A stretch of DNA of 10,801 nucleotides from a virus (lineage: Duplodnaviria > Heunggongvirae > Uroviricota > Caudoviricetes): the IMG/VR virus record IMGVR_UViG_2778261086_000004; one strand, given 5' to 3'. Position 1 is the stretch's first letter, and each line of letters begins with the position of its first letter. Position numbers and translations under genes: made by a program. Of the stretch, positions 685-10,801 are shown in pieces. The notes beneath the pieces were generated by a model that saw only the letters and a program-made list of their open reading frames with translations, ran no database searches and was not told where the DNA came from.

Positions 685-2097
685 ATGGCTACTTGGCAAC
701 AAGGAATCAACTCAGGCGGCTTTCTTGCTGGTATCGGTGGGCAAAACTCAAATGCGCCAAAGGCAAGTGATGTAAGTGAGGCGTTGGCCTATATTCGCCA
801 GAACAACGAAATGGAGCGCTCAGGTCGCAATAACATCGGCCTTCAGGCGTTGCAGGGGCTTGGTAGTGTCGCTCAAACATATCAAGCCGCAAAGCAACAG
901 GAAGCGGATGCTGCATTCCAAAAAGAATATGCGGCAGCCATCCAGTCAGGTGATCGGCAGCAGGTGCGAGATCTGATGACCAAATATCCTGGTCAATTAG
1001 AGAAGATTCAGTCTGGTATGAAGTGGGCAGACGAAGACCAGCGCAATTCTATCGGCACCTTAGCGGCTGGCGCACGCCTTGCTGCCTCGTCTCCAGAAGC
1101 AATGCAATCATGGCTGCAAAACAACGCCAAGGAACTGACTCGCGTCGGTGTTGACCCTAATAACGTTGCTCAGATGTATCAGCAGAATCCTTCAGGATTT
1201 GGTGAGTTTGTTGATCACCTTGGAATGGCTGCGCTTGGTCCGATTGATTACTTCAATGTTCAGGACAAGATGGTTGGTCGTGAGATTGACCGAGGCAGGC
1301 TGGCAGAGACAATCCGCAGCAATCAGGCTGGCGAGGCACTTCAGGCGAGAGGGCAAAACCTTTCCTATCAGTCAGCAATGACTGGGCACAATATCGCAGC
1401 ACAACGTTTGGCTCTGGATCAGCAAGAGTTCGGGTTTAAGATGCAGCAAGCGCAGGAAAAGGCTCAGCAGTTGATTAGCGAAGCACCTAAGCTGTCAGTA
1501 AACATGGAAAAAGGCATCGAGACGGCTGTAAACAATGCCACAGCATCATCAAACTCAGCCAATTCCATGAGTGCGCTTGCTCAACAGTTTAGAGCAGAAA
1601 AACCAACGACAGGTTTGTTCGGTAACGCACAGAACATGTTCGCAAAACTTACCGGAAGCGATACGACATTGCGTGATTTGCGCATTCGCCAAAATGCCCT
1701 TGTTAACAGTCAGGTTCTTAAATTCCTACCTCCCGGCCCAGCAACGGATAAAGACGTTGAGATCGTTCGACAGGGTGCGCCAACTGACATGGATAACCCT
1801 GAGACGGTCGCAAGATGGCTTGATGCAATGGCAAACCTTGAGCGACGAAACGCGCAGTTTAATGAGTTTAAAGCCGAGTGGATGAGCGCGAATGGCAACC
1901 CTGGACAATCGCGTAATGGCGGTCAGATATTGGGGTTGGATGTTAAAAAAGGTGAATCATTGGGGAGTGCCGTTAAGCGGTATATGTCAATGAATACTGA
2001 CGCAGCGCCAGCACAAGATTCGACACCTTCAGGAGAACCACGGAATCAGGTTGGATCATATACCTCAAAATCAGGCATTCAATTTACGGTGGAATGA
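685..2097 (+). CDS. P22 gp20-like ejection protein
   Basis: 470-aa ORF (P22 gp20 is about 471 aa); SD-like AAGGTGG at 674-680 before ATG 685; stop overlaps the next start (ATGA at 2094-2097), indicating translational coupling. Confidence 0.7.
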
Positions 2098-3923
2098 TGA
2101 AAGTAACTGCAAACGGTAAGACATTTACCTTCCCTGATGGTACGAGCACGGAAGATATTGGCACCGCCATTGATGAGTATTTTGCTGGTCAGGCTGTTCA
2201 GCAAAAAACAGTTAATCAGGACAATAATGCACCAACACGGGAAGAACCATCATTGATGCAACAAGCTGGCGATTGGCTCACTGGTGGTCAAAGTGCAGGG
2301 CAAATTGCAGAACAGGCTGGTCGTGGTCTGGTAAACATACCATTTGACGTATTGCAGGGTGGCGCAAGTCTGATTAATGCAATCAGTCAGGGGCTTGGTG
2401 GGCCAAAAGTATTGGATGATGTCTATCGTCCAGTCGATAGACCGACAGACCCTTATGCGCAAGCTGGAGAAACAATTGGCGGGTATTTAGTTCCAGGAGT
2501 TGGAACGGCAGGAAGCATGGCTATTGGATCACTGGCAGAGGCCGCAAATCAGAAAGGCGATTTCGCACAAAATGCAGCTAAAAATGCCGGAGTTAACCTT
2601 GCCGCTCAGGGGGTTCTTTCCGCAGCCGCAAAGGGAATAGGGCGTGGAATAACGGCTATAAAAGGTGATATTGCGCCAGAAGTGGCGAAGAAAATTGCCA
2701 CATCAGAATCGATGGGCGTGACACCAATGACATCTGATGTAATCCCGCCGAAAAATGCTTTCACTCGTGGCCTTACTCAGGATGCTGAGGGGGCTTTGCT
2801 CGGGACAGGATCAAAGAGAGCGGAGCAGTATGCAAAAAGAAGTCAGCTAGTTAAAAAACAGCTTGAGAAATATGGTGAATATAGCCCATCAGTTGTTGTT
2901 GACGATCTGTATGGTTCTCTGAAGTCAAGGAAGGATTCGGCCGGAAGCGTTATTGAAGACATTACAACCAAAATGGGAGACACACCTGTTGACACATCAA
3001 AATCTATTAAGGTTATCGACAACGTACTTACAAGAGCTAACAGGCTTGGGAAAGTGGCAAATAAGAATTTGATTCGCGGGTTATCCGATTTGCGAGAAGA
3101 ACTTGCTAAACCAGATATAGATTTTGGTCTATTGAGAGAGTTGCGGTCAGCCTTGAGGGAAAGTATTCAGGGAGATGCCATGGTTTTTCCTAATAGCGCG
3201 AAAGCCTCAACTGATGCCGTGGAGAGGGCAATGGGGGCAGATTTGAGGAATAACGCAGCGCGGTATTTGGGGGCTGGAGAGGCCGCCAGATACGTCAAAG
3301 CAAACTCTGACTACTCCAACGTCTTCAATAAAGTTCTCAATAAAAGGATTGCGAATAATCTCAACAAAGCTAAAAAAGAGTTTACTCCAGAGCTAATAAA
3401 CAGCGTTGTATTCAGCAGAAAACCATCAGATATTAAGAGGATATGGCCTACTCTTAGTGAAGATGGAAAGAACGCTATGCGTGCTGCTTATATCAGCAAG
3501 ATTGCAGAAAAAGCAGGAGACTCGCCAACAAAATTTCTTACCGAGTTAAATAAGTTGAAGTCGCAATCTGACGGTCAGATCTATAACACGATATTCAGTG
3601 GGAGACACATGAAAGAGCTTGATGCTCTTCATGAAGTTCTACAGCAAACAGCAAGGTCGGACACCGCAAATGTAGTAACTCAGACGGGGCAATCACAAGC
3701 CAACAGGATAAGGACGATTGGCGCAACTGCGACTCTTGGGGCAACACTGGCGCTTGAATCTGGTTTCGGTGCAATGATGCGCCTGTATGAGTCCAAAGCA
3801 ACGAGGAATGCGCTCTTACGTCTGGCAAACACTAAAGCTGGAACGCCAGCCTATGAAAGAGCGCTGAATAACGCTGCGAATGCCATCAGGCCGCTGCTTG
3901 CCACTGAGGCAACACAGCAGTAA
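2094..3923 (+). CDS. P22 gp16-like ejection protein
   Basis: 609-aa ORF, the same length as P22 gp16; start overlaps the stop of the preceding gene; last gene of the ejection-protein trio in P22-like gene order. Confidence 0.7.
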
Positions 3924-3940
3924 CTAAATGCCATGGATGG

Positions 3941-4228
3941 CTATTTTTTAGTGTAATAATCATCAAAATCGCAAGAAACAGATATCACAAAACCTGAAGT
4001 CATAGAAAAAGACAGGGTTTCACATGCCTTTCCGGCTTGATGGTATGCATTGATGCCACCGTATACGGATTCTCTTGATGAAAACAATGATTTTTCACCG
4101 TTTTTTTCTACAAGAATATGCCCATCTGAATCATTAATAAACCAAACAGAAATAGAGGAGCTTTCGCCAAGGAATGTTCTGTTGAATACCATGGGGGATT
4201 TACCCTTGACAACATTTTCTGCGCGCAT
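3941..4228 (-). CDS. Hypothetical protein, 95 aa, no recognised domain
   Basis: Minus-strand ORF whose ATG (4228-4226) lies 2 nt after the TGA of the upstream minus-strand small ORF (TGAttATG). AT-rich region; sequence looks protein-like but I recognise no homolog. Confidence 0.4.
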   Translation of the reverse strand: MRAENVVKGKSPMVFNRTFLGESSSISVWFINDSDGHILVEKNGEKSLFSSRESVYGGINAYHQAGKACETLSFSMTSGFVISVSCDFDDYYTKK

Positions 4229-4230
4229 AA

Positions 4231-4389
4231 TCAGCTCAGCATTTTTTTGCTATTTTTTTGTTCTGTATAGATTTTGTCTGCCACAAAATAAACAATGGCA
4301 ATGGCTAACAAAGATAGGGAAATCAGCAATGCCTTTTTAATCAATTTTTTGGCATCCCTGTAAATCTCAATTGATAATTTTTCACTCAC
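4231..4389 (-). CDS. Hypothetical small single-pass membrane protein (about 52 aa) from a GTG start
   Basis: Strong SD AGGAGG (rc of 4395-4400) 5 nt upstream of in-frame GTG (4389-4387). Predicted TM helix ALLISLSLLAIAIVYFV flanked by Lys-rich segments. The longer 124-aa reading (4231..4605) overlaps the plus-strand gene and its N-terminal part looks non-coding. Confidence 0.35.
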   Translation of the reverse strand: MSEKLSIEIYRDAKKLIKKALLISLSLLAIAIVYFVADKIYTEQKNSKKMLS

Positions 4390-4419
4390 ACCAACCTCCT
4401 TAGTTTTGAGCAGGATACC

Positions 4420-4785
4420 ATGAAAAAAGTTAACATTGGAAACGTACCAAAGATGCTCGTTCCGCTTTTTGAGAGCGGTACAATTGTGTTTTGTAGAGAC
4501 TTTCCAGAATGGCAACGCCTGCATCAAAAACTTGGCGTTGACGTGCAGGACTCGGACGCCAACGGAGCGTCTCATACAATGAGCAGCGAGAATGGTGTTT
4601 TGCATGTGATAGGTGTGTTCAATGGCAAACTATCTACTATTGCCCATGAGTGCGCTCACATGGCATTCGATATCTGCTCAAGGGTAGGTGTTGATGTTGA
4701 ACCAGGAAGAGCCAACGAGACTTACTGCTACTTAATGAGCAGGCTTGTTGAGTTCTGCGAGCGACATATCAAAAAGCCGGAGTGA
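4420..4785 (+). CDS. Hypothetical protein, 121 aa, with HExxH (HECAH) zinc-metallopeptidase-like motif
   Basis: ORF with AGGA at 4412-4415 before ATG 4420; stop TGA sits in the loop of a bidirectional terminator hairpin. Motif IAHECAHMAF in a hydrophobic context resembles a zincin active-site helix; no family assigned. Confidence 0.55.
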   Translation: MKKVNIGNVPKMLVPLFESGTIVFCRDFPEWQRLHQKLGVDVQDSDANGASHTMSSENGVLHVIGVFNGKLSTIAHECAHMAFDICSRVGVDVEPGRANETYCYLMSRLVEFCERHIKKPE

Positions 4786-4798
4786 CCCGGCTTGATTA
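4774..4798. terminator. Bidirectional intrinsic terminator between convergent genes
   Basis: Stem aagccgg (4774-4780), loop agtgac, stem ccggctt (4787-4793); A-run upstream and T-rich tract downstream (gattattactttttgc), so it can terminate both strands. Confidence 0.5.
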
Positions 4799-4978
4799 TT
4801 ACTTTTTGCTGTCTGGAGTTCGCTTATCCAATACCCAGCCATGACCTGGCTTTGTTGTTGGCGGAAGTCTTTCGTTGTCCCTGACGGTGGCAAAATTGTC
4901 CTTCTTACCACCGCGTGGCCCAACTTCCTGGTATATTCCGCCGTTTTTCCCTGTATTTTCACCTGGTTTTTTCGCCAT
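4799..4978 (-). CDS. Small YjzC-like protein (59 aa from MAKKPGENTG...)
   Basis: In the 64-aa ORF 4799..4993 the likely start is the internal ATG at 4978-4976, preceded by GAGGT. Pattern KPGE..G.NGGIY.EVG..G...LPPTT..G.W resembles the YjzC-like small-protein family as I recall it. Confidence 0.55.
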   Translation of the reverse strand: MAKKPGENTGKNGGIYQEVGPRGGKKDNFATVRDNERLPPTTKPGHGWVLDKRTPDSKK

Positions 4979-5014
4979 GATATACCTCAACATACACCCG
5001 TTATTGGGCGATTA

Positions 5015-5043: not shown

Positions 5044-5070
5044 TATGGCCCAGGTAAATGCAAAAATTAA

Positions 5071-5092
5071 CCCACCTTCAGGTGGGTTTTTT
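5071..5092 (+). terminator. Intrinsic terminator (cccacc-ttca-ggtggg plus T6)
   Basis: Perfect 6-bp GC-rich stem with 4-nt loop followed by TTTTTTGT; an A-rich run upstream gives some bidirectional potential. Confidence 0.55.
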
Positions 5093-5144
5093 GTACAAAT
5101 CCTTCAGCCAGTACATAACTACTGACAGATAACCAACGCAACGA

Positions 5145-5167
5145 CCCAGCTTCGGCTGGGTTTTTTT
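5145..5167 (+). terminator. Intrinsic terminator (cccagc-ttcg-gctggg plus T7)
   Basis: 6-bp stem, tetraloop ttcg, followed by TTTTTTTAT; second of two tandem terminators upstream of the tailspike gene. Confidence 0.55.
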
Positions 5168-5336: not shown

Positions 5337-7103
5337 ATGACAGATTCGATAAATGCCAATGTTGTAGTGAGTATGCCTTCGCAACTCTTCACTATGGCGC
5401 GTTCTTTTAAAGCCGTTGCCAATGGAAAAATTTATATCGGTAAAATTGATACTGACCCGGTAAATCCAGAAAACCAGATTCAGGTTTATATGGAGAACGA
5501 AGACGGCTCTCACGTTCCTGTTTCGCAACCAATCATCATTAACGCTGCTGGTTATCCGGTATATAACGGACAGATTGCAAAGTTCGTTACCGTACAGGGA
5601 CATTCAATGGCTGTGTATGACGCATATGGCACACAGCAGTTCTACTATCCAAACATTCTCAAGTATGACCCGGACCAGTTCCGGCATGAGCTAGAGGGAG
5701 AGTTTGCAAGCGGGGCATTCCCTGAAACAGTAAAGTATAAGTATGGATTACCATCTGTTGTTGATGGTGCTGTCTTCAGGAATGTACAAGAAAAGCTGGA
5801 TGATTTTGTATTTTTGGAAGACTTTGGTGGCAAAGACGATTCTGGAATAACAGATAATAGCATAGCCTTTCAGAAGGCATTCGCTTCAGGCGCAAGAAAA
5901 ATTCACTTGAAAGGTTCTGGCATATATGGAATGAAGACCAGAGACATTGAGCTTCCAGCAAAATATGAAATTATTGGTAATGCAAAAAATCCAGAGATTA
6001 AATATCTAGGTTCTGATTCAACCTTCACTATGTTTACCCTTACAGGGTCTGGCCCGGCTTCTAGTCAGTGGAAACAGGGTGGCATATTCCGAGATGTAGT
6101 CATATCATCCGACGTGCTGATTAACTGGATTGTTTGTCGTCATGTCCAGAACTTAGAGTTTGATCGGGTGTTTTTCTATAACGCACAAACTACTATGAAC
6201 AACTACCATTACTTTAACTTCTTCCGGTGCGAACGTTGGGGTAGTCCATTCTTGGGGCGTGCGGATTTAAATACTGTGGAGTTCATCAGCGAATCACCTA
6301 AGTTTCTTATGTGTTTCAGTTCTAACTCTCCGATTGACGTATGGGATACCGCCGATTTATATATCAGCCAATGTACGATGTTTGTTGGAGATTACGCGGT
6401 AAGGACACGCACAACACTTGGTGGGATGGGTGGAACAGACCAATTCGCGGGTTATCCGGTTATAATTTCAAATAGCGTTTTCGATGCCATCAACGGCCCT
6501 GCTTTCGATATGGAGAGTCTAGCTTACGCTACCATCAGCGGTAACATTATTAGTGCTGGGAGGCCGAACAATGCTCGTGGGATACATATTAAAGGTGCTA
6601 GAAACCTGGCATTTACGGGAAATACTATCACCTACTGTGGTGAGTTTGGTATGGTGTTGGAAAATGCTGAACAATGCTCTTTGTCGAATAATATATACAA
6701 CGGAAATAAGACTGGCGGGCTATCGTTGGTAAATTGCAAAGAGGTATCTGTCATTGGCGGTGCTATGGGTACATCTTATATCCGGGGTGGTTACTACGTG
6801 CAACCACTGGGGATTACAGACCCCGGCGATAACTGTAACGGCATAACCATCAATGGCGTTTCTTTCGATAGCGATATGACAACCAAGATTTACCTTAATA
6901 CATCGGAAGAGCGCAAAAACCGTATTATAGCTTGTCTAGGTGTTAATGATACTCCGACGACTTATCAGAACAGGGGGTCTACCGCGCAGCGCCCTACAGC
7001 ACCAGTCAGTGGGCAGATGTATTATGATACAACGCTAGGTCTTCCAATATGGTATAACACAGTATCATCTGAATGGAAGAGGGCGGATGGTACAAGTGTA
7101 TGA
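5337..7103 (+). CDS. Tailspike protein: P22 gp9-type N-terminal head-binding domain fused to a divergent beta-helix receptor-binding domain
   Basis: 588 aa; GGAG at 5325-5328. The first roughly 110 residues ([12 protein letters not shown]...[26 protein letters not shown]...[13 protein letters not shown]...LKYDPDQ) closely match the P22 tailspike N-terminus from memory. The remainder has beta-helix-like repeats (ISGNII, FTGNTI, LSNNIY) but is not P22-like. Confidence 0.9.
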
Positions 7104-7134: not shown

Positions 7135-8601
7135 TTAATTGCAGTTGAATGTAATGTTTTTATCGTAAACAAAAATCTTCTTATCTCCGACGTCAATAAC
7201 CTTTGATGGATTACCAATCTCTTTAATTGTTATATTTCTCATAACCTCATCATCTGTAATTATGAAATTTCCTCCGCGCTCATACCAATAGTTTTTTGAC
7301 AACCATTTATTGCATGCAAGTATATTCAAACCTCGGTTTACATCAATCGGAGCAATTGATATGTCTCCATCTATACTTGCTGATGAAGCAAACCAGAAAG
7401 ATGCATACCCGTTTGTGAGGTTATTCTGCCTTACAGTGTGTTTTATCTGATTTATAATATCATTAGAATTGTCTTTTTTTTCATGCATATAAATAGAACA
7501 AAAGAGAATAAATGTTGTAACAACCCCTAATGCGATGAATTTCCACCCTCTGGAGTTGTTAGATCTGCCAATAACAACAGGTGCTAGTATGAAAAATGGA
7601 ACGATATATCTTATAGTCCATTCATCTATTGGACGGTTACTTGCAAGGTATGCTGGTATCATTATAATACAAGCTATACATATAGCCATATTGACCATGG
7701 AGGTTTTGAATATTTCCTTTACTGACATTGCAACTAATATAAGAAGTAAAATCATTACAACAAAACAAAAAACAGAAATAAGCGCTGTAATATCAGAAGG
7801 TGGTTTGCCAAAGAAGAAAGCTCCACTGTATAGGAGGAATCCTTTTACGAATAAGTATAAATTATTCAGGATATCATCAAATGCAACAAATGTTGGATCT
7901 GGAACGCCTGGCAAAATGTACCAGTTATGAGCTCTTGCGTACATGGTCATAATTTTTGATGCAACATATGCAAATATAGTTGCAACTAGTATGATCAGAT
8001 TTTTTTGGCTTTTGGTTTTTACTATAAAAACCACTGATGATATTGCTACTGGTGCAATAATGAGTAGCTTTATGATGTCATCACTGAAACAAGCTAGAAC
8101 TAACACTAAAATATAAAGAGATAGAGAAATTAACGATCTTGTTTTGGAAAAATTGTCTAACATTATGAAGCAAAACAACATGGATACATATGTGCCGACA
8201 TGTATCACAGGTATTAATACGTTTAATACTGCAAACCCAGAAGGCAGCGCAACGCAAAATGAAATGGCCCATAACGATGAAAGCCTTTCTTTTGAAAGAT
8301 AAAATGTCATCAATGTAACCATTGAATACATAATTGCCGGTATGCAGTATGCTTGGTACTGTCCGTACCAGAATACCTTTGAAGCAAGCCCGTACCATAT
8401 TATGTCTGTAAAATAGAATGATACTGTAGAGAGATACCATCCACTAAGCGTCCAATTTCCGTCCGCAATGTCCTTACCCTCAAGAAGTCCAGAAACAGCA
8501 TCCGAACTTGGCAAAATCTGTTTTGAAATCGAGGCGTAGAAGAAAGTCAAGAATATAAATCCAATGATATATATGGCTGTTTTTTTTATATTTAAAGTCA
8601 T
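7135..8601 (-). CDS. gtrC: GtrC-family serotype-specific O-antigen glucosyltransferase (polytopic membrane protein)
   Basis: 488-aa, markedly AT-rich ORF directly downstream of gtrB (TAA, 1 nt, ATG), with many hydrophobic segments; position and architecture typical of the type-specific third gene of gtr operons. Specificity cannot be assigned. Confidence 0.8.
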   Translation of the reverse strand: MTLNIKKTAIYIIGFIFLTFFYASISKQILPSSDAVSGLLEGKDIADGNWTLSGWYLSTVSFYFTDIIWYGLASKVFWYGQYQAYCIPAIMYSMVTLMTFYLSKERLSSLWAISFCVALPSGFAVLNVLIPVIHVGTYVSMLFCFIMLDNFSKTRSLISLSLYILVLVLACFSDDIIKLLIIAPVAISSVVFIVKTKSQKNLIILVATIFAYVASKIMTMYARAHNWYILPGVPDPTFVAFDDILNNLYLFVKGFLLYSGAFFFGKPPSDITALISVFCFVVMILLLILVAMSVKEIFKTSMVNMAICIACIIMIPAYLASNRPIDEWTIRYIVPFFILAPVVIGRSNNSRGWKFIALGVVTTFILFCSIYMHEKKDNSNDIINQIKHTVRQNNLTNGYASFWFASSASIDGDISIAPIDVNRGLNILACNKWLSKNYWYERGGNFIITDDEVMRNITIKEIGNPSKVIDVGDKKIFVYDKNITFNCN

Positions 8602-8602
8602 T

Positions 8603-9517
8603 TTACTTATCCTTTAGAATGTATCTTGGTCGTTGCTTAACTTCAACATAAATTCTTCCTATATACTCTCCAAGAACTCCTATGCCTATTAACTGAACTC
8701 CACCAAGAAACAATATTGATACAATGATAGAAGGGTAACCTGGAACACTATTTCCAAACATCAATTTATCAGCAATCATCCATGCTCCATAAAGGAATGA
8801 TAAGGTTGCCACAAACAGGCCTATATAAGTCCACATGCGCAAAGGGAAAGTAGAAAAGCTAGTGATCCCTTCCAGCGCTAAGTTCCAGAGCTTCCATCCA
8901 TTGAACTTTGTGCTTCCTGCAACGCGTTCTGCTCGCGCATATTCTACGACATCGGTTCGACCACCAACCCAGCTCAGCACACCCTTCATAAACAGGTTTC
9001 GTTCTGGCATGAGCTTAATGTTTTCTACTACTTCGCGAGACATGAGCCGGAAGTCGCCAACATTTTCTTCTATCTTAGGGTTGCTGATTTTGTTATGAAG
9101 TTTATAGAACCACTCAGCAGATTTACGCTTCAGCCTGCTGTCAGTGGAGCGGTCAGAGCGTTTAGCCAGAACCATATCTGCACCGGCCTGCCATTTCTCT
9201 ATCAAGTGAGGAATAACTTCGATAGGGTCTTGCAGATCAACGTCAATCGGGATAATTGCCTCCCCGGTAGCATGGTCCAGACCTGCGAACAGGGCGGGTT
9301 CTTTGCCGAAGTTACGTGTGAACGACAGCGAAACCACAAGCGGGTCGGCAACAGCAAGCTCGTTGATAATTGATTCTGTAGCGTCTTTGCTGCCATCGTT
9401 TATGAAGACTATCTCGACTTCATGCTGCTGAAGCCCTTCAAATTCGCGCACGGTTTTATAAAAAATAGGTATCGTGGCCTCTTCGTTAAAGACCGGAACG
9501 ACTAAAGAAATTTTCAT
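8603..9517 (-). CDS. gtrB: Bactoprenol glucosyltransferase GtrB (GT2 family)
   Basis: 304-aa protein beginning [13 protein letters not shown]..., with the DxD region (IPIDVDLQD) and C-terminal TM helices; near-identical in pattern to Shigella/Salmonella phage GtrB as recalled. ATGA overlap with gtrA. Confidence 0.92.
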
Positions 9518-9876
9518 TTCGCATCCCTAAAGACAATGAACTTTGAATAGACGAAACCGCACACCAGGCTGATGGCGGAGAAGGTGACAAGAGTTATCAT
9601 CGGGGGAAGTGCGCATCTATCAGCAGCCCATCCAACAGTAGCACTGAGTGTTCCCATGAACCCGACATATAACATGTAGCGCATCGTTGTAGTTGATGCT
9701 TTGAATGTGAATTTTGCATTCGCGAAGAAGCTAAAACTCACAGCCACAACGAAACCTGCGAAGTTTGCCAGAGCCTGATTGGTATGTGCGGCATAGATAC
9801 ATACACCAAAAACCACCCAGTGTATAAGTGTGTTCAGCACACCAATCGAGGTGTACCTTGCAAATATATTTAACAT
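9514..9876 (-). CDS. gtrA: Bactoprenol-linked glucose translocase (flippase) GtrA
   Basis: 120-aa small membrane protein ([24 protein letters not shown]...[13 protein letters not shown]) closely matching GtrA of serotype-converting phages as recalled; first gene of the gtr operon. Confidence 0.92.
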
Positions 9877-10038
9877 TTATTTAATCAATGAGTTCTGAAA
9901 GGTATGAAGTCTATCATCCAAGTCTCAATCGATCGATACTTGCGGTAGTTGATGAGGAAAACTCTGGTACACAAAGCTTTGCACTGGACTGCAAGGTGTT
10001 GTGCTTCTCTGGAGTGCGATATGTTTGATGACAAAAAA

Positions 10039-10073
10039 TTAGCGCAAGAGGACAAAAAATCACCTTGCGCTAA
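10039..10073 (-). terminator. Lambda sib/tI-like hairpin (integrase retroregulation element), minus-strand orientation
   Basis: Inverted repeat ttagcgcaag (10039-10048) and cttgcgctaa (10064-10073) with a 15-nt loop, followed on the minus strand by TTTTTTGTCA; sequence and position just outside the attP P arm match the lambda sib region as recalled. Confidence 0.5.
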
Positions 10074-10083
10074 TGCTCTGTCT

Positions 10084-10242
10084 CAGGTCACTAATACCAT
10101 CTAAGTAGTTGATTCATAGTGACTGGATATGTTGTGTTTTGTAGTATCATGCAGTCTATTTTTTAGACTAAATGTATTTTAACGCATTGATATTGTTGGC
10201 TTTTGCTGTTTCGCGTTCAGCTTTTTTATACTAACTTGAGCG
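10084..10242 (+). other. attR (P arm, core, B') of a lambda-type site-specific recombination system at the E. coli attB-lambda site
   Basis: Arm-type sites CAGGTCACTAATAC (10084-10097) and CATAGTGACTGG (about 10115-10128); the first roughly 75 bp of the arm are near-identical to the lambda attP P arm and the rest is diverged. Core GCTTTTTTATACTAA at 10220-10234 is followed by the bacterial B' sequence CTTGAGCGAAACG. Confidence 0.85.
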
Positions 10243-10293
10243 AAACGGGAAGGTAAAAAGACAAAAAGTTGTTTTTAATACCTTTAAGTGATA

Positions 10294-10316
10294 CCAGATG
10301 GCATTGCGCCATCTGG
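10294..10316 (-). terminator. Possible transcription terminator or stabilising hairpin downstream of ybhB
   Basis: 9-bp perfect stem ccagatggc / gccatctgg with 5-nt loop just 3' of the ybhB stop on the minus strand; the downstream U-tract is weak, so confidence is low. Confidence 0.3.
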
Positions 10317-10324
10317 CAGAGTGA

Positions 10325-10801
10325 TTAACTAAACATCGCAGTAATCGAGGCGCTTGCCAGAGAGTGGAAATGAACGTTAAACCCGACCATCGCGCCGCTG
10401 GCACCTTCATCGACATCAATACGTTCTATATCCAGCGCGTGAACGGTAAAAATGTAGCGATGAGTTTCGCCTTTCGGCGGTGCTGCGCCATCGTACCCGG
10501 TTTTACCAAAGTCGGTACGCGTCTGCAAAACGCCGTCTGGCATTGCTACCAGACCAGAGCCAAACCCTTGCGGTAATACGCGGGTATCAGCGGGTAAGTT
10601 AACAACTACCCAGTGCCACCAGCCGGAGCCGGTTGGCGCATCCGGGTCGTAGCAGGTGACAACAAAACTTTTCGTTCCCGCAGGAACATCATCCCACGCC
10701 AGATGCGGTGAAATATTATCGCCATCGTAACCCATGCCGTTAAAGACATGACGATGCGGCAATTTATCGCCATCGCGCAGATCGTTACTGATGAGTTTCA
10801 T
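10325..10801 (-). CDS. ybhB: Host PEBP/RKIP-family protein YbhB (complete, 158 aa)
   Basis: ORF translation MKLISNDLRDGDKLPHRHVFNGMGYDGDNISPHLAWDDVPAGTKSFVVTCYDPDAP... matches E. coli YbhB as recalled; ybhB is the gene beside attB-lambda on the bio side, transcribed toward the att site, as seen here. Confidence 0.9.
   Translation of the reverse strand: MKLISNDLRDGDKLPHRHVFNGMGYDGDNISPHLAWDDVPAGTKSFVVTCYDPDAPTGSGWWHWVVVNLPADTRVLPQGFGSGLVAMPDGVLQTRTDFGKTGYDGAAPPKGETHRYIFTVHALDIERIDVDEGASGAMVGFNVHFHSLASASITAMFS

Follow-up and report, generated by a model that had tools for sequence, protein, structure and literature searches.

Proteins of the small HExxH zincin kind are familiar from mobile elements. 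P22 is among the best-studied phages, and its small gene hkcC is already catalogued. The gluzincins, clan MA(E), include thermolysin (M4), aminopeptidase N (M1), the oligopeptidases (M3) and the collagenases (M9). ImmA/IrrE proteins (M78, COG2856) are likewise small zincins of mobile elements with an HExxH and a Glu, while SprT of E. coli, a member of the SprT-like family (PF10263), takes H95, 13 residues past the motif, as its third ligand and carries a C-terminal Zn-ribbon (PF17283) and a Cys-rich C-terminus. The minigluzincins proabylysin and projannalysin have a catalytic domain of about 100-110 residues, and the 114-aa protein Acel_2062 (PDB 3e11), named 'predicted zincin-like metalloprotease', is a minimal soluble zincin; minimal zincins and minigluzincins have been related to the SprT and WLM domains (PMC4559962). 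In P22 and HK620, hkcC is part of the 'ant moron' that separates genes 16 and 9. The HK620 record labels it 'hkcC, unknown', some P22 records leave it unannotated, and the epsilon34 genome paper described hkcC and 59a as 'two genes of unknown function' in a variable 'ant moron' (PMC2629481). No functional study of hkcC or orf59a was found in the literature searched, and no functional label for the HkcC family is given in Pfam, NCBIfam or PHROG.

The window, which is the whole stretch of 10,801 nucleotides that was analysed, corresponds to the right end of an E. coli prophage of the P22-like kind (Lederbergvirus). Its features are as follows.

1-675, ejection protein gp7 (Pfam match)
685-2097, ejection protein gp20 (Pfam match)
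2094-3923, 609-aa ORF in the gp16 position, without a Pfam match and of the length of P22 gp16
3941-4228, minus strand, 95-aa protein from the ORF list, the second leftward gene, in the sieA/hkcB slot
4231-4389, minus strand, predicted 52-aa single-pass membrane protein with GGAGG, 5 nt and a GTG start, the first leftward gene
4412-4415, plus strand, Shine-Dalgarno core AGGA, 4 nt before the hkcC ATG, read from the sequence
4420-4785, plus strand, hkcC coding sequence from the ORF list, 121 aa plus stop (ATG at 4420, TGA at 4783-4785)
4645-4659, plus strand, codons H76-E77-C78-A79-H80, with predicted zinc ligands H76 and H80 and predicted base E77, in helix 71-88
4714-4731, plus strand, codons N99-E100-T101-Y102-C103-Y104, with E100 the predicted third ligand at the start of helix 100-116
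4774-4793, both strands, hairpin AAGCCGG-AGTGAC-CCGGCTT from the terminator scan, common to the convergent hkcC and orf59a
4799-4978, minus strand, orf59a homologue, 59 aa from an internal ATG (the ORF extends to 4993), convergent with hkcC
5337-7103, tailspike with the P22 head-binding domain (Pfam Head_binding)
7135-9876, minus strand, gtrC-like/gtrB/gtrA O-antigen modification operon
Window edge, host PEBP-family gene

The protein of the window was 100% identical over 121 aa to HkcC of P22 and of HK620, its DNA was about 97% identical to the phage copies, and the phrog_1365 profile matched residues 1-121 with an E value of 1.4e-39. The annotated HK620 and P22 genomes and the window share the protein, its position and orientation, the downstream orf59a and the bidirectional terminator; hkcC is on the late-operon strand, flanked by ejection gene 16 and tailspike gene 9, and orf59a converges on it. 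In the window, hkcC lies between the ORF in the gp16 position and the tailspike gene and runs in the direction of the late genes; because this is the coding strand of a P22-type late operon, the gene is probably made in lytic growth. The leftward neighbours differ, since the 52-aa membrane protein and the 95-aa protein occupy the slot that is held by sieA in P22 and by hkcB in HK620. The 52-aa gene most likely starts at the GTG at 4389 behind GGAGG, and neither of the two proteins had a family match in Pfam, PHROGs, NCBIfam or PADLOC. The mnt, arc and ant genes of P22 are missing from the window, as they are from HK620, where the terminators tMNT and tANT are the only remnants of that region.

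Comparison of 80 loci with near-identical hkcC showed that the gene is a constant piece of the mosaic in P22-like elements. The left neighbour was sieA in 12 of these loci, hkcB in 8, the 52-aa and 95-aa gene pair of the window in 3, and other genes in the rest; mnt was present in 68/80 and ant in 30/80. The hkcC region was found in 805 of 5,426 complete E. coli genomes (about 15%), where it is labelled 'hypothetical protein', and many Salmonella P22-like phages also carry the gene. No HTH gene adjoins hkcC in the window according to the ORF list and Pfam, and the 52-aa membrane protein, the 95-aa protein and Orf59a gave no HTH match in Pfam, PHROGs or NCBIfam. The picture of a stand-alone protein of about 120 aa lacking an HTH partner, drawn earlier in the sequence-only reading, was therefore accurate. 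HkcC and its three small neighbours had no match among the PADLOC-DB defence models (E<=1).

Selection on the coding frame was visible in the allele differences. Between the window and P22, hkcC showed 6 synonymous and 0 non-synonymous differences, between the window and HK620 it showed 4 and 0, and 37 alleles drawn from the 80 IMG/VR loci had 0-10 synonymous against 0-1 non-synonymous differences. Because nearly all of these differences were synonymous in the plus frame, hkcC is a real gene under purifying selection, and the 124-aa ORF on the opposite strand over its 5' half (4231-4605) was rejected as a rival gene and regarded as an ORF-extension artefact. The AGGA core 4 nt 5' of the ATG, a short but usable spacing, agreed with the claim that the gene has its own Shine-Dalgarno sequence. 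A dedicated hkcC promoter is not claimed: the single sigma-70-like site upstream (4349-4378) is no more than chance would give, with 2 sites found where 3.0 were expected. The gene had also been said to end in a terminator hairpin; the hairpin is present at 4774-4793, where it overlaps the hkcC stop codon, but it mainly ends the convergent mnt/orf59a transcript according to the annotation of HK620, in which it is the bidirectional terminator tORF59A, and of P22, in which it is t-mnt (P22-pbi). Its tail on the plus strand is T-poor (GATTATTACT), and it is a better terminator when read on the minus strand than on the plus strand.

The sequence IAHECAHMAF comprises residues 74-83 of HkcC, a protein of about 13.6 kDa with a pI of 6.3 and without a hydrophobic segment, and the residue numbers previously assigned to the motif (H76, E77 and H80) were correct. 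In the six-frame translation of the window it was the sole HExxH within any ORF, and the number of occurrences expected from the composition of HkcC itself was 0.02. Models of Pfam, NCBIfam and PADLOC gave noise only for HkcC (lantibiotic models on 'HEC'), and the family consensus had no Pfam match. Exhaustive HMM searching at E<=1e-3 showed that the PHROG 1365 family comprises at least 547 clusters at the 50% identity level, nearly all of 105-140 aa. All 130 sampled members matched phrog_1365, for which the PHROG label is 'unknown function'. Almost no further members came from a second, word-indexed search of proteins, for which the 130-sequence profile served as query, and a related-locus search with a narrow alignment returned near-identical P22-like loci only.

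Conservation was calculated over 130 representatives with 23-48% identity to HkcC. H76 and H80 were conserved in 100% and E77 in 99% of them, followed by E100 (99%), G49 (98%), Y104 (96%), C103 (82%) and N99 (75%). E100 is located 20 residues past H80, and the family signature is HExxH-x19-E-x3-Y, which by its sequence appears to be of the gluzincin type. By the gluzincin paradigm we infer that E100 is the third zinc ligand and that Y104 is a candidate transition-state stabiliser. Since the HExxH was invariant in 130 mutually divergent homologues, the possibility of a chance motif that the sequence-only reading had left standing was excluded, and the motif it had noticed proved to be real and invariant and to lie on a predicted helix (AF2 helix 71-88). 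The downstream acidic residues in which it had looked for a third ligand fared differently, as E100 was 99% conserved but D92 and E94 reached only 18% and 25% among the representatives. That E77 is conserved, and not just the two His residues, is the main argument in favour of catalysis over a structural metal site. C25, C78 and C86 were rejected as metal ligands, being conserved within the close HkcC clade only and replaced by hydrophobic residues elsewhere.

The AlphaFold2 model, which was built from an 18-sequence alignment, had a pLDDT of 89.1 and a pTM of 0.83. Its elements follow the order of strands 11-13 and 21-25, helix 28-37, strands 49-56 and 59-66, and helices 71-88 and 100-116. 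In this confident model the topology is that of a minimal zincin, with a sheet, a backing helix, an edge strand, an active-site helix and a 'glutamate' helix, so that the structure prediction proposed as a check on the motif agreed with a zincin-like topology. The conserved HExxH is located on an α-helix (71-88); the conserved Glu, E100, whose role as a ligand is predicted, begins the helix that follows the active-site helix (100-116); and the N-terminal part forms a mixed β-sheet backed by a helix, with an edge strand that leads directly into the active-site helix. Taken with the conserved motif, this topology partly supports the idea of a minimal peptidase, whose metal binding, proteolysis and host or phage target are predicted.

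Foldseek gave no meaningful match of the HkcC model in the PDB. The best 60 fold matches contained CapP, 3e11, three M9 collagenases, PprI/IrrE and Dcp, mixed with unrelated folds, and the likeness of the model to solved zincins is weak and only suggestive. A search of PDB sequences with the profile of close homologues found nothing, and the PDB profile search (E<=10) returned 9 chains, all of them HExxH metallopeptidases with HExxH aligned on HExxH, including myroilysin (E 0.004), BMP1/tolloid and an M35 enzyme. In BFVD, 26 phage proteins matched HkcC at E<1e-3 with TM values up to 0.83. These belong to Pseudomonas, Ralstonia, Salmonella, Erwinia, Achromobacter, Serratia, Eggerthella and crAss-like phages, and a few such neighbours are named SprT-like or metalloprotease.

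Among known metallopeptidases, the SprT-like family was the commonest weak Pfam match of the HkcC family (17 of 130 members, best E 1e-4), with the HExxH and the preceding strands in register; DUF5700 was matched weakly by 2 members, and DUF4344, M48, DA1 and reprolysin by 1 each. The invariant Glu of HkcC lies 20 residues past the motif, whereas the His ligand of SprT lies 13 residues past it, and HkcC ends at residue 121 with neither a Zn-ribbon nor a Cys-rich C-terminus. The SprT-like Pfam model was matched neither by the window protein (E<=1) nor by the family consensus. Alignment of the HkcC family by hhalign with a 20-sequence SprT alignment gave a probability of 8.6% (E 0.0039), and with E. 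coli SprT alone 4%. Membership of SprT was ruled out by these hhalign values, the Pfam miss and the missing His ligand and Zn-ribbon. Membership of ImmA/IrrE, with which CapP and PprI are weak fold-level links, was not supported either, as Pfam M78 was matched neither by the window protein nor by any of the 130 relatives and no HTH repressor gene of the XRE/ImmR type is adjacent. The comparison with M78/ImmA and SprT-like HMMs, which had been put forward as a way to place the protein, thus ended with the window protein matching neither Pfam model. HkcC, with its 121 aa and its HExxH and Glu helix, agrees in size with the minigluzincin catalytic domain and is similar in size to Acel_2062. Within the zincin superfamily, the HkcC family is best treated as one of its own, which so far has no label.

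We consider HkcC to be a soluble zinc metallopeptidase that acts on a cytoplasmic protein target during lytic growth, with H76, H80 and E100 as metal ligands, E77 as base and Y104 assisting, and we put the probability of this reading at roughly 0.6. It would most likely be a stand-alone endopeptidase of minimal zincin architecture. In the proposed mechanism, where metal binding and catalysis, the time of expression and the kind of substrate are inferred, the ligands of Zn2+ would be H76 and H80 in helix 71-88 together with E100, the first residue of helix 100-116. E77 would activate the zinc-bound water as general base, and Y104 would help to stabilise the tetrahedral intermediate. The substrate peptide may dock as an extra strand on the edge strand 59-66, which stands before the active-site helix. 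By its strand and position, hkcC would probably be expressed from the antiterminated late transcript while the phage grows lytically, and its target in the cytoplasm would be a protein of the host or of the phage.

Relatives of hkcC recur in several kinds of genomic position. A clade of 38-40% identity, which contains ST64T Orf-129, phage L, epsilon34 gene 70 and several enterobacterial prophages, has the lysis genes on one side and the small terminase gene on the other, and a 194-aa version in mEp021-type phages also lies between lysis and terminase genes. A DNA-pattern scan of IMG/VR yielded 120 loci, all 120 of which were family members. Of 29 evaluable ST64T-like loci, 25 had TerL no more than 4 kb downstream, as did 6 of 7 in another cluster. 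Metagenomic relatives immediately precede the TerL of an SU10-like phage, immediately follow TerL, or stand just ahead of a lysis-terminase block. Elsewhere the gene comes after a tail-tip J gene, after genes for a VapE primase or a T7-type terminase, or after replication genes, and in the virulent N4-like phage phCDa a relative heads a cluster of small ORFs. The presence in virulent phages and the placement on the late strand favour a lytic-cycle function over a prophage-expressed defence. Terminase proximity, though notable for its frequency, was rejected as proof of function, given the members that follow tail-tip J, VapE primase or replication genes; it may reflect only a favoured landing site for accessory genes.

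The neighbourhood of orf59a is the other recurrent arrangement. Orf59a matched phrog_3202 (E 2.7e-31) and, weakly, YjzC. The gene is convergent with and immediately downstream of hkcC in 69 of 80 P22-like loci. It also stands beside hkcC in all 33 loci of a clade of 62-69% identity, whose phages are of a different type and carry a Gp13-like capsid gene some 4 kb upstream, and in Xenorhabdus, Proteus, a Pasteurellaceae genome and locus L003 (MLHO01000058.1), where HkcC identity is 43-63%. None of the 87 more distant members that were sampled had it. In P22, orf59a is placed between mnt and the annotated t-mnt terminator, and it is therefore probably co-transcribed with mnt from the prophage. 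The two genes could be a functional pair, with Orf59a as inhibitor or substrate, or could simply be co-inherited.

Several other readings have to be set against that of a cytoplasmic metallopeptidase of lytic growth. HkcC could be a protease of counter-defence or host takeover that cleaves a bacterial immunity or housekeeping protein during infection, and we regard this as unlikely, though it ranks first among the narrower readings: as an accessory gene, hkcC occupies mosaic 'moron' positions in which the neighbours vary, its family occurs in temperate and virulent phages that differ widely and infect many hosts, a relative leads the small-ORF cluster of the N4-like phage, and one metagenomic relative adjoins AAA, YAcAr and Sequestin genes. 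However, the late-operon placement is late for defences that act early, the literature searched held no paper tying such a protein to anti-defence, and PADLOC gave no match, though its library is one of defence systems, not of anti-defence. A narrower form of the zinc-metallopeptidase reading, in which HkcC is a DNA-associated protease like SprT, Spartan or Wss1 that strips proteins bound or cross-linked to replicated phage DNA before terminase packaging, seems quite improbable to us. For it speak the weak SprT-like Pfam matches, the BFVD neighbours so named, a terminase within a few genes in several independent phage types, namely in the ST64T-like loci (25/29), in the other clade (6/7), in L004, L101, L103 and L104 and in mEp021, and Lys/Ala/Pro-rich basic C-terminal tails of the nucleic-acid-binding kind in P0063, P0067, P0116, P0133 and P0150. 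Against it, the hhalign probability of 8.6% with SprT is non-significant, the His ligand and the Zn-ribbon of SprT are missing, and HkcC of the window lacks a basic tail (pI 6.3) and is encoded far from the terminase, between gene 16 and the tailspike gene, while other members follow tail-tip J or VapE primase genes. Accessory genes in general land in the region upstream of the terminase, so the proximity may mean nothing.

The linkage with orf59a can be read as one cassette of convergent genes, in which Orf59a expressed from the prophage binds and silences HkcC or is its substrate. We give this only a small chance. The retention of orf59a in the P22-like loci, in the whole 62-69% identical clade and in the more divergent genomes named above, the one bidirectional terminator common to both genes and the probable co-transcription of P22 orf59a with mnt are in its favour, but 11 of 80 P22-like loci have hkcC without orf59a, so do the 87 distant members, and the linkage could be co-inheritance of a small cassette. 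That HkcC cleaves a phage repressor as an ImmA/IrrE-like anti-repressor protease is very unlikely indeed. Weak BFVD neighbours named IrrE (E about 0.04) and the position of P22 hkcC beside mnt/arc/ant, in the immI neighbourhood, suggest it, yet Pfam M78 was not matched, no HTH/XRE substrate gene adjoins hkcC, the immI genes are gone from the window and from HK620 while hkcC is kept, and most family members lie near a terminase or in virulent phages rather than in immunity regions. It is likewise improbable that HkcC is a non-catalytic zinc-binding protein or pseudo-enzyme that binds a partner, or that the motif arose by chance in a protein of other function. The enzyme activity is a prediction, the likeness to solved zincins is weak, and C103 beside E100, 82% conserved, could in principle be a fourth coordination position; however, the conservation of E77 (99%) with both His residues, E100 and Y104 at less than 50% identity is the pattern of an active enzyme, and chance would supply only 0.02 motifs. 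A broader proposal, which we hold to be rather doubtful, is that PHROG 1365 represents an unrecognised, phage-specific group of the smallest stand-alone gluzincin-type proteases with a late-infection job, either the clearing of DNA-bound proteins ahead of the terminase or the destruction of host factors, and with Orf59a as an inhibitor in the lysogen within the HkcC clade.

As small HExxH zincins of mobile elements are already known, the advance made here is one of annotation and hypothesis, not a new principle. What is new is that the motif was shown to define a large unlabelled phage family, the gluzincin-type signature of Glu and Tyr, and the recurrent placements of the gene with its linkage to orf59a. 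An invariant zinc-protease signature in at least 547 clusters is a concrete and testable biochemical hypothesis. If HkcC is inactive, it is a conserved pseudo-protease, which would be informative too. If it is active, its substrate would expose a proteolytic step of lytic growth that is common to very different temperate and virulent phages.

The genes flanking hkcC on both sides, out to the right end of the prophage, were as follows (coordinates in the window).

2094-3923 (+): 609-aa ORF at the position of gp16 (ejection protein)
3941-4389 (-): two leftward genes, for a 52-aa single-pass membrane protein and a 95-aa protein
4799-4993 (-): orf59a homologue (59-64 aa; PHROG 3202; weak YjzC-like match)
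5069-5088 and 5143-5162: pair of strong terminator hairpins in the interval from orf59a to the tailspike gene
5337-7103 (+): tailspike, 588 aa, with the P22 head-binding domain (residues 4-114) and a right-handed beta-helix domain
7135-9876 (-): gtrA, gtrB and a 488-aa gene
10325-10801 (-): host PEBP-family gene, 158 aa

The 609-aa ORF had no match in Pfam, though Pfam models exist for the adjoining gp7 and gp20. The two leftward genes occupied the slot taken by sieA in P22 and by hkcB in HK620, and their products matched nothing in Pfam, PHROGs, NCBIfam or PADLOC. The pair was common to only 3 of the 80 related loci and may represent a moron of the superinfection-exclusion type. The 52-aa gene started at a GTG at 4389 with GGAGG 5 nt ahead; when it was stretched to the first possible start codon, a 124-aa ORF arose (4231-4605, -) that covers the 5' half of hkcC on the opposite strand. 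This ORF was rejected as an artefact of upstream extension, and the synonymous differences between alleles in the hkcC frame also argued against it.

Judged by their position relative to the tailspike start, the two hairpins at 5069-5088 and 5143-5162 appear to match what the HK620 annotation lists as remnants of the mnt and ant terminators of P22. Like HK620, this prophage appears to have lost the immI genes mnt, arc and ant by deletion. The tailspike was shorter than those of P22 (667 aa) and HK620 (710 aa) and may therefore differ from them in its receptor-binding part. The leftward genes beyond it looked like an O-antigen glucosylation operon, in which gtrA (120 aa, GtrA_DPMS_TM) and gtrB (304 aa, GT2) were followed by a multi-pass membrane protein of 488 aa in the gtrC position; this protein, without a Pfam match, would be the operon's transferase, probably a serotype-specific one. 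Since phage-related genes stopped after gtrA, with 9877-10801 lying beyond, and were followed by the host PEBP-family gene, which we take to be ybhB-like, the prophage end (att site) may fall within 9877-10324.

Across phage types, members of the HkcC family were often encoded only a few genes from TerL. In other phages, both P22-like and lambdoid, a paralogous HkcC-like clade (38-40% identity) was flanked by the lysis genes on one side and the small terminase gene on the other, at the following loci.

L086, 3501-3890: ST64T orf-129
L087, 3977-4561: mEp021 gp49
L092-L096: further members of the clade

Some family members (P0063, P0067, P0116, P0133, P0150 and P0170) carried C-terminal extensions of 40-70 residues, most of them basic and rich in Lys, Ala, Pro and Glu, e.g. 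KPKKASKPKAKP; that of P0170, unlike most, was Ser/Thr-rich. P0063 and P0067 had a similar VPR-x4-[YF]KR motif at the very C-terminus. A possible role of the tails is nucleic-acid binding.

The orf59a homologue was convergent to hkcC, with one terminator hairpin common to both. The two co-occurred across phage types and genera that are unrelated, as far down as 43% HkcC identity, co-occurrence not being seen with family members more distant than this, and Orf59a may be a functional partner of HkcC.
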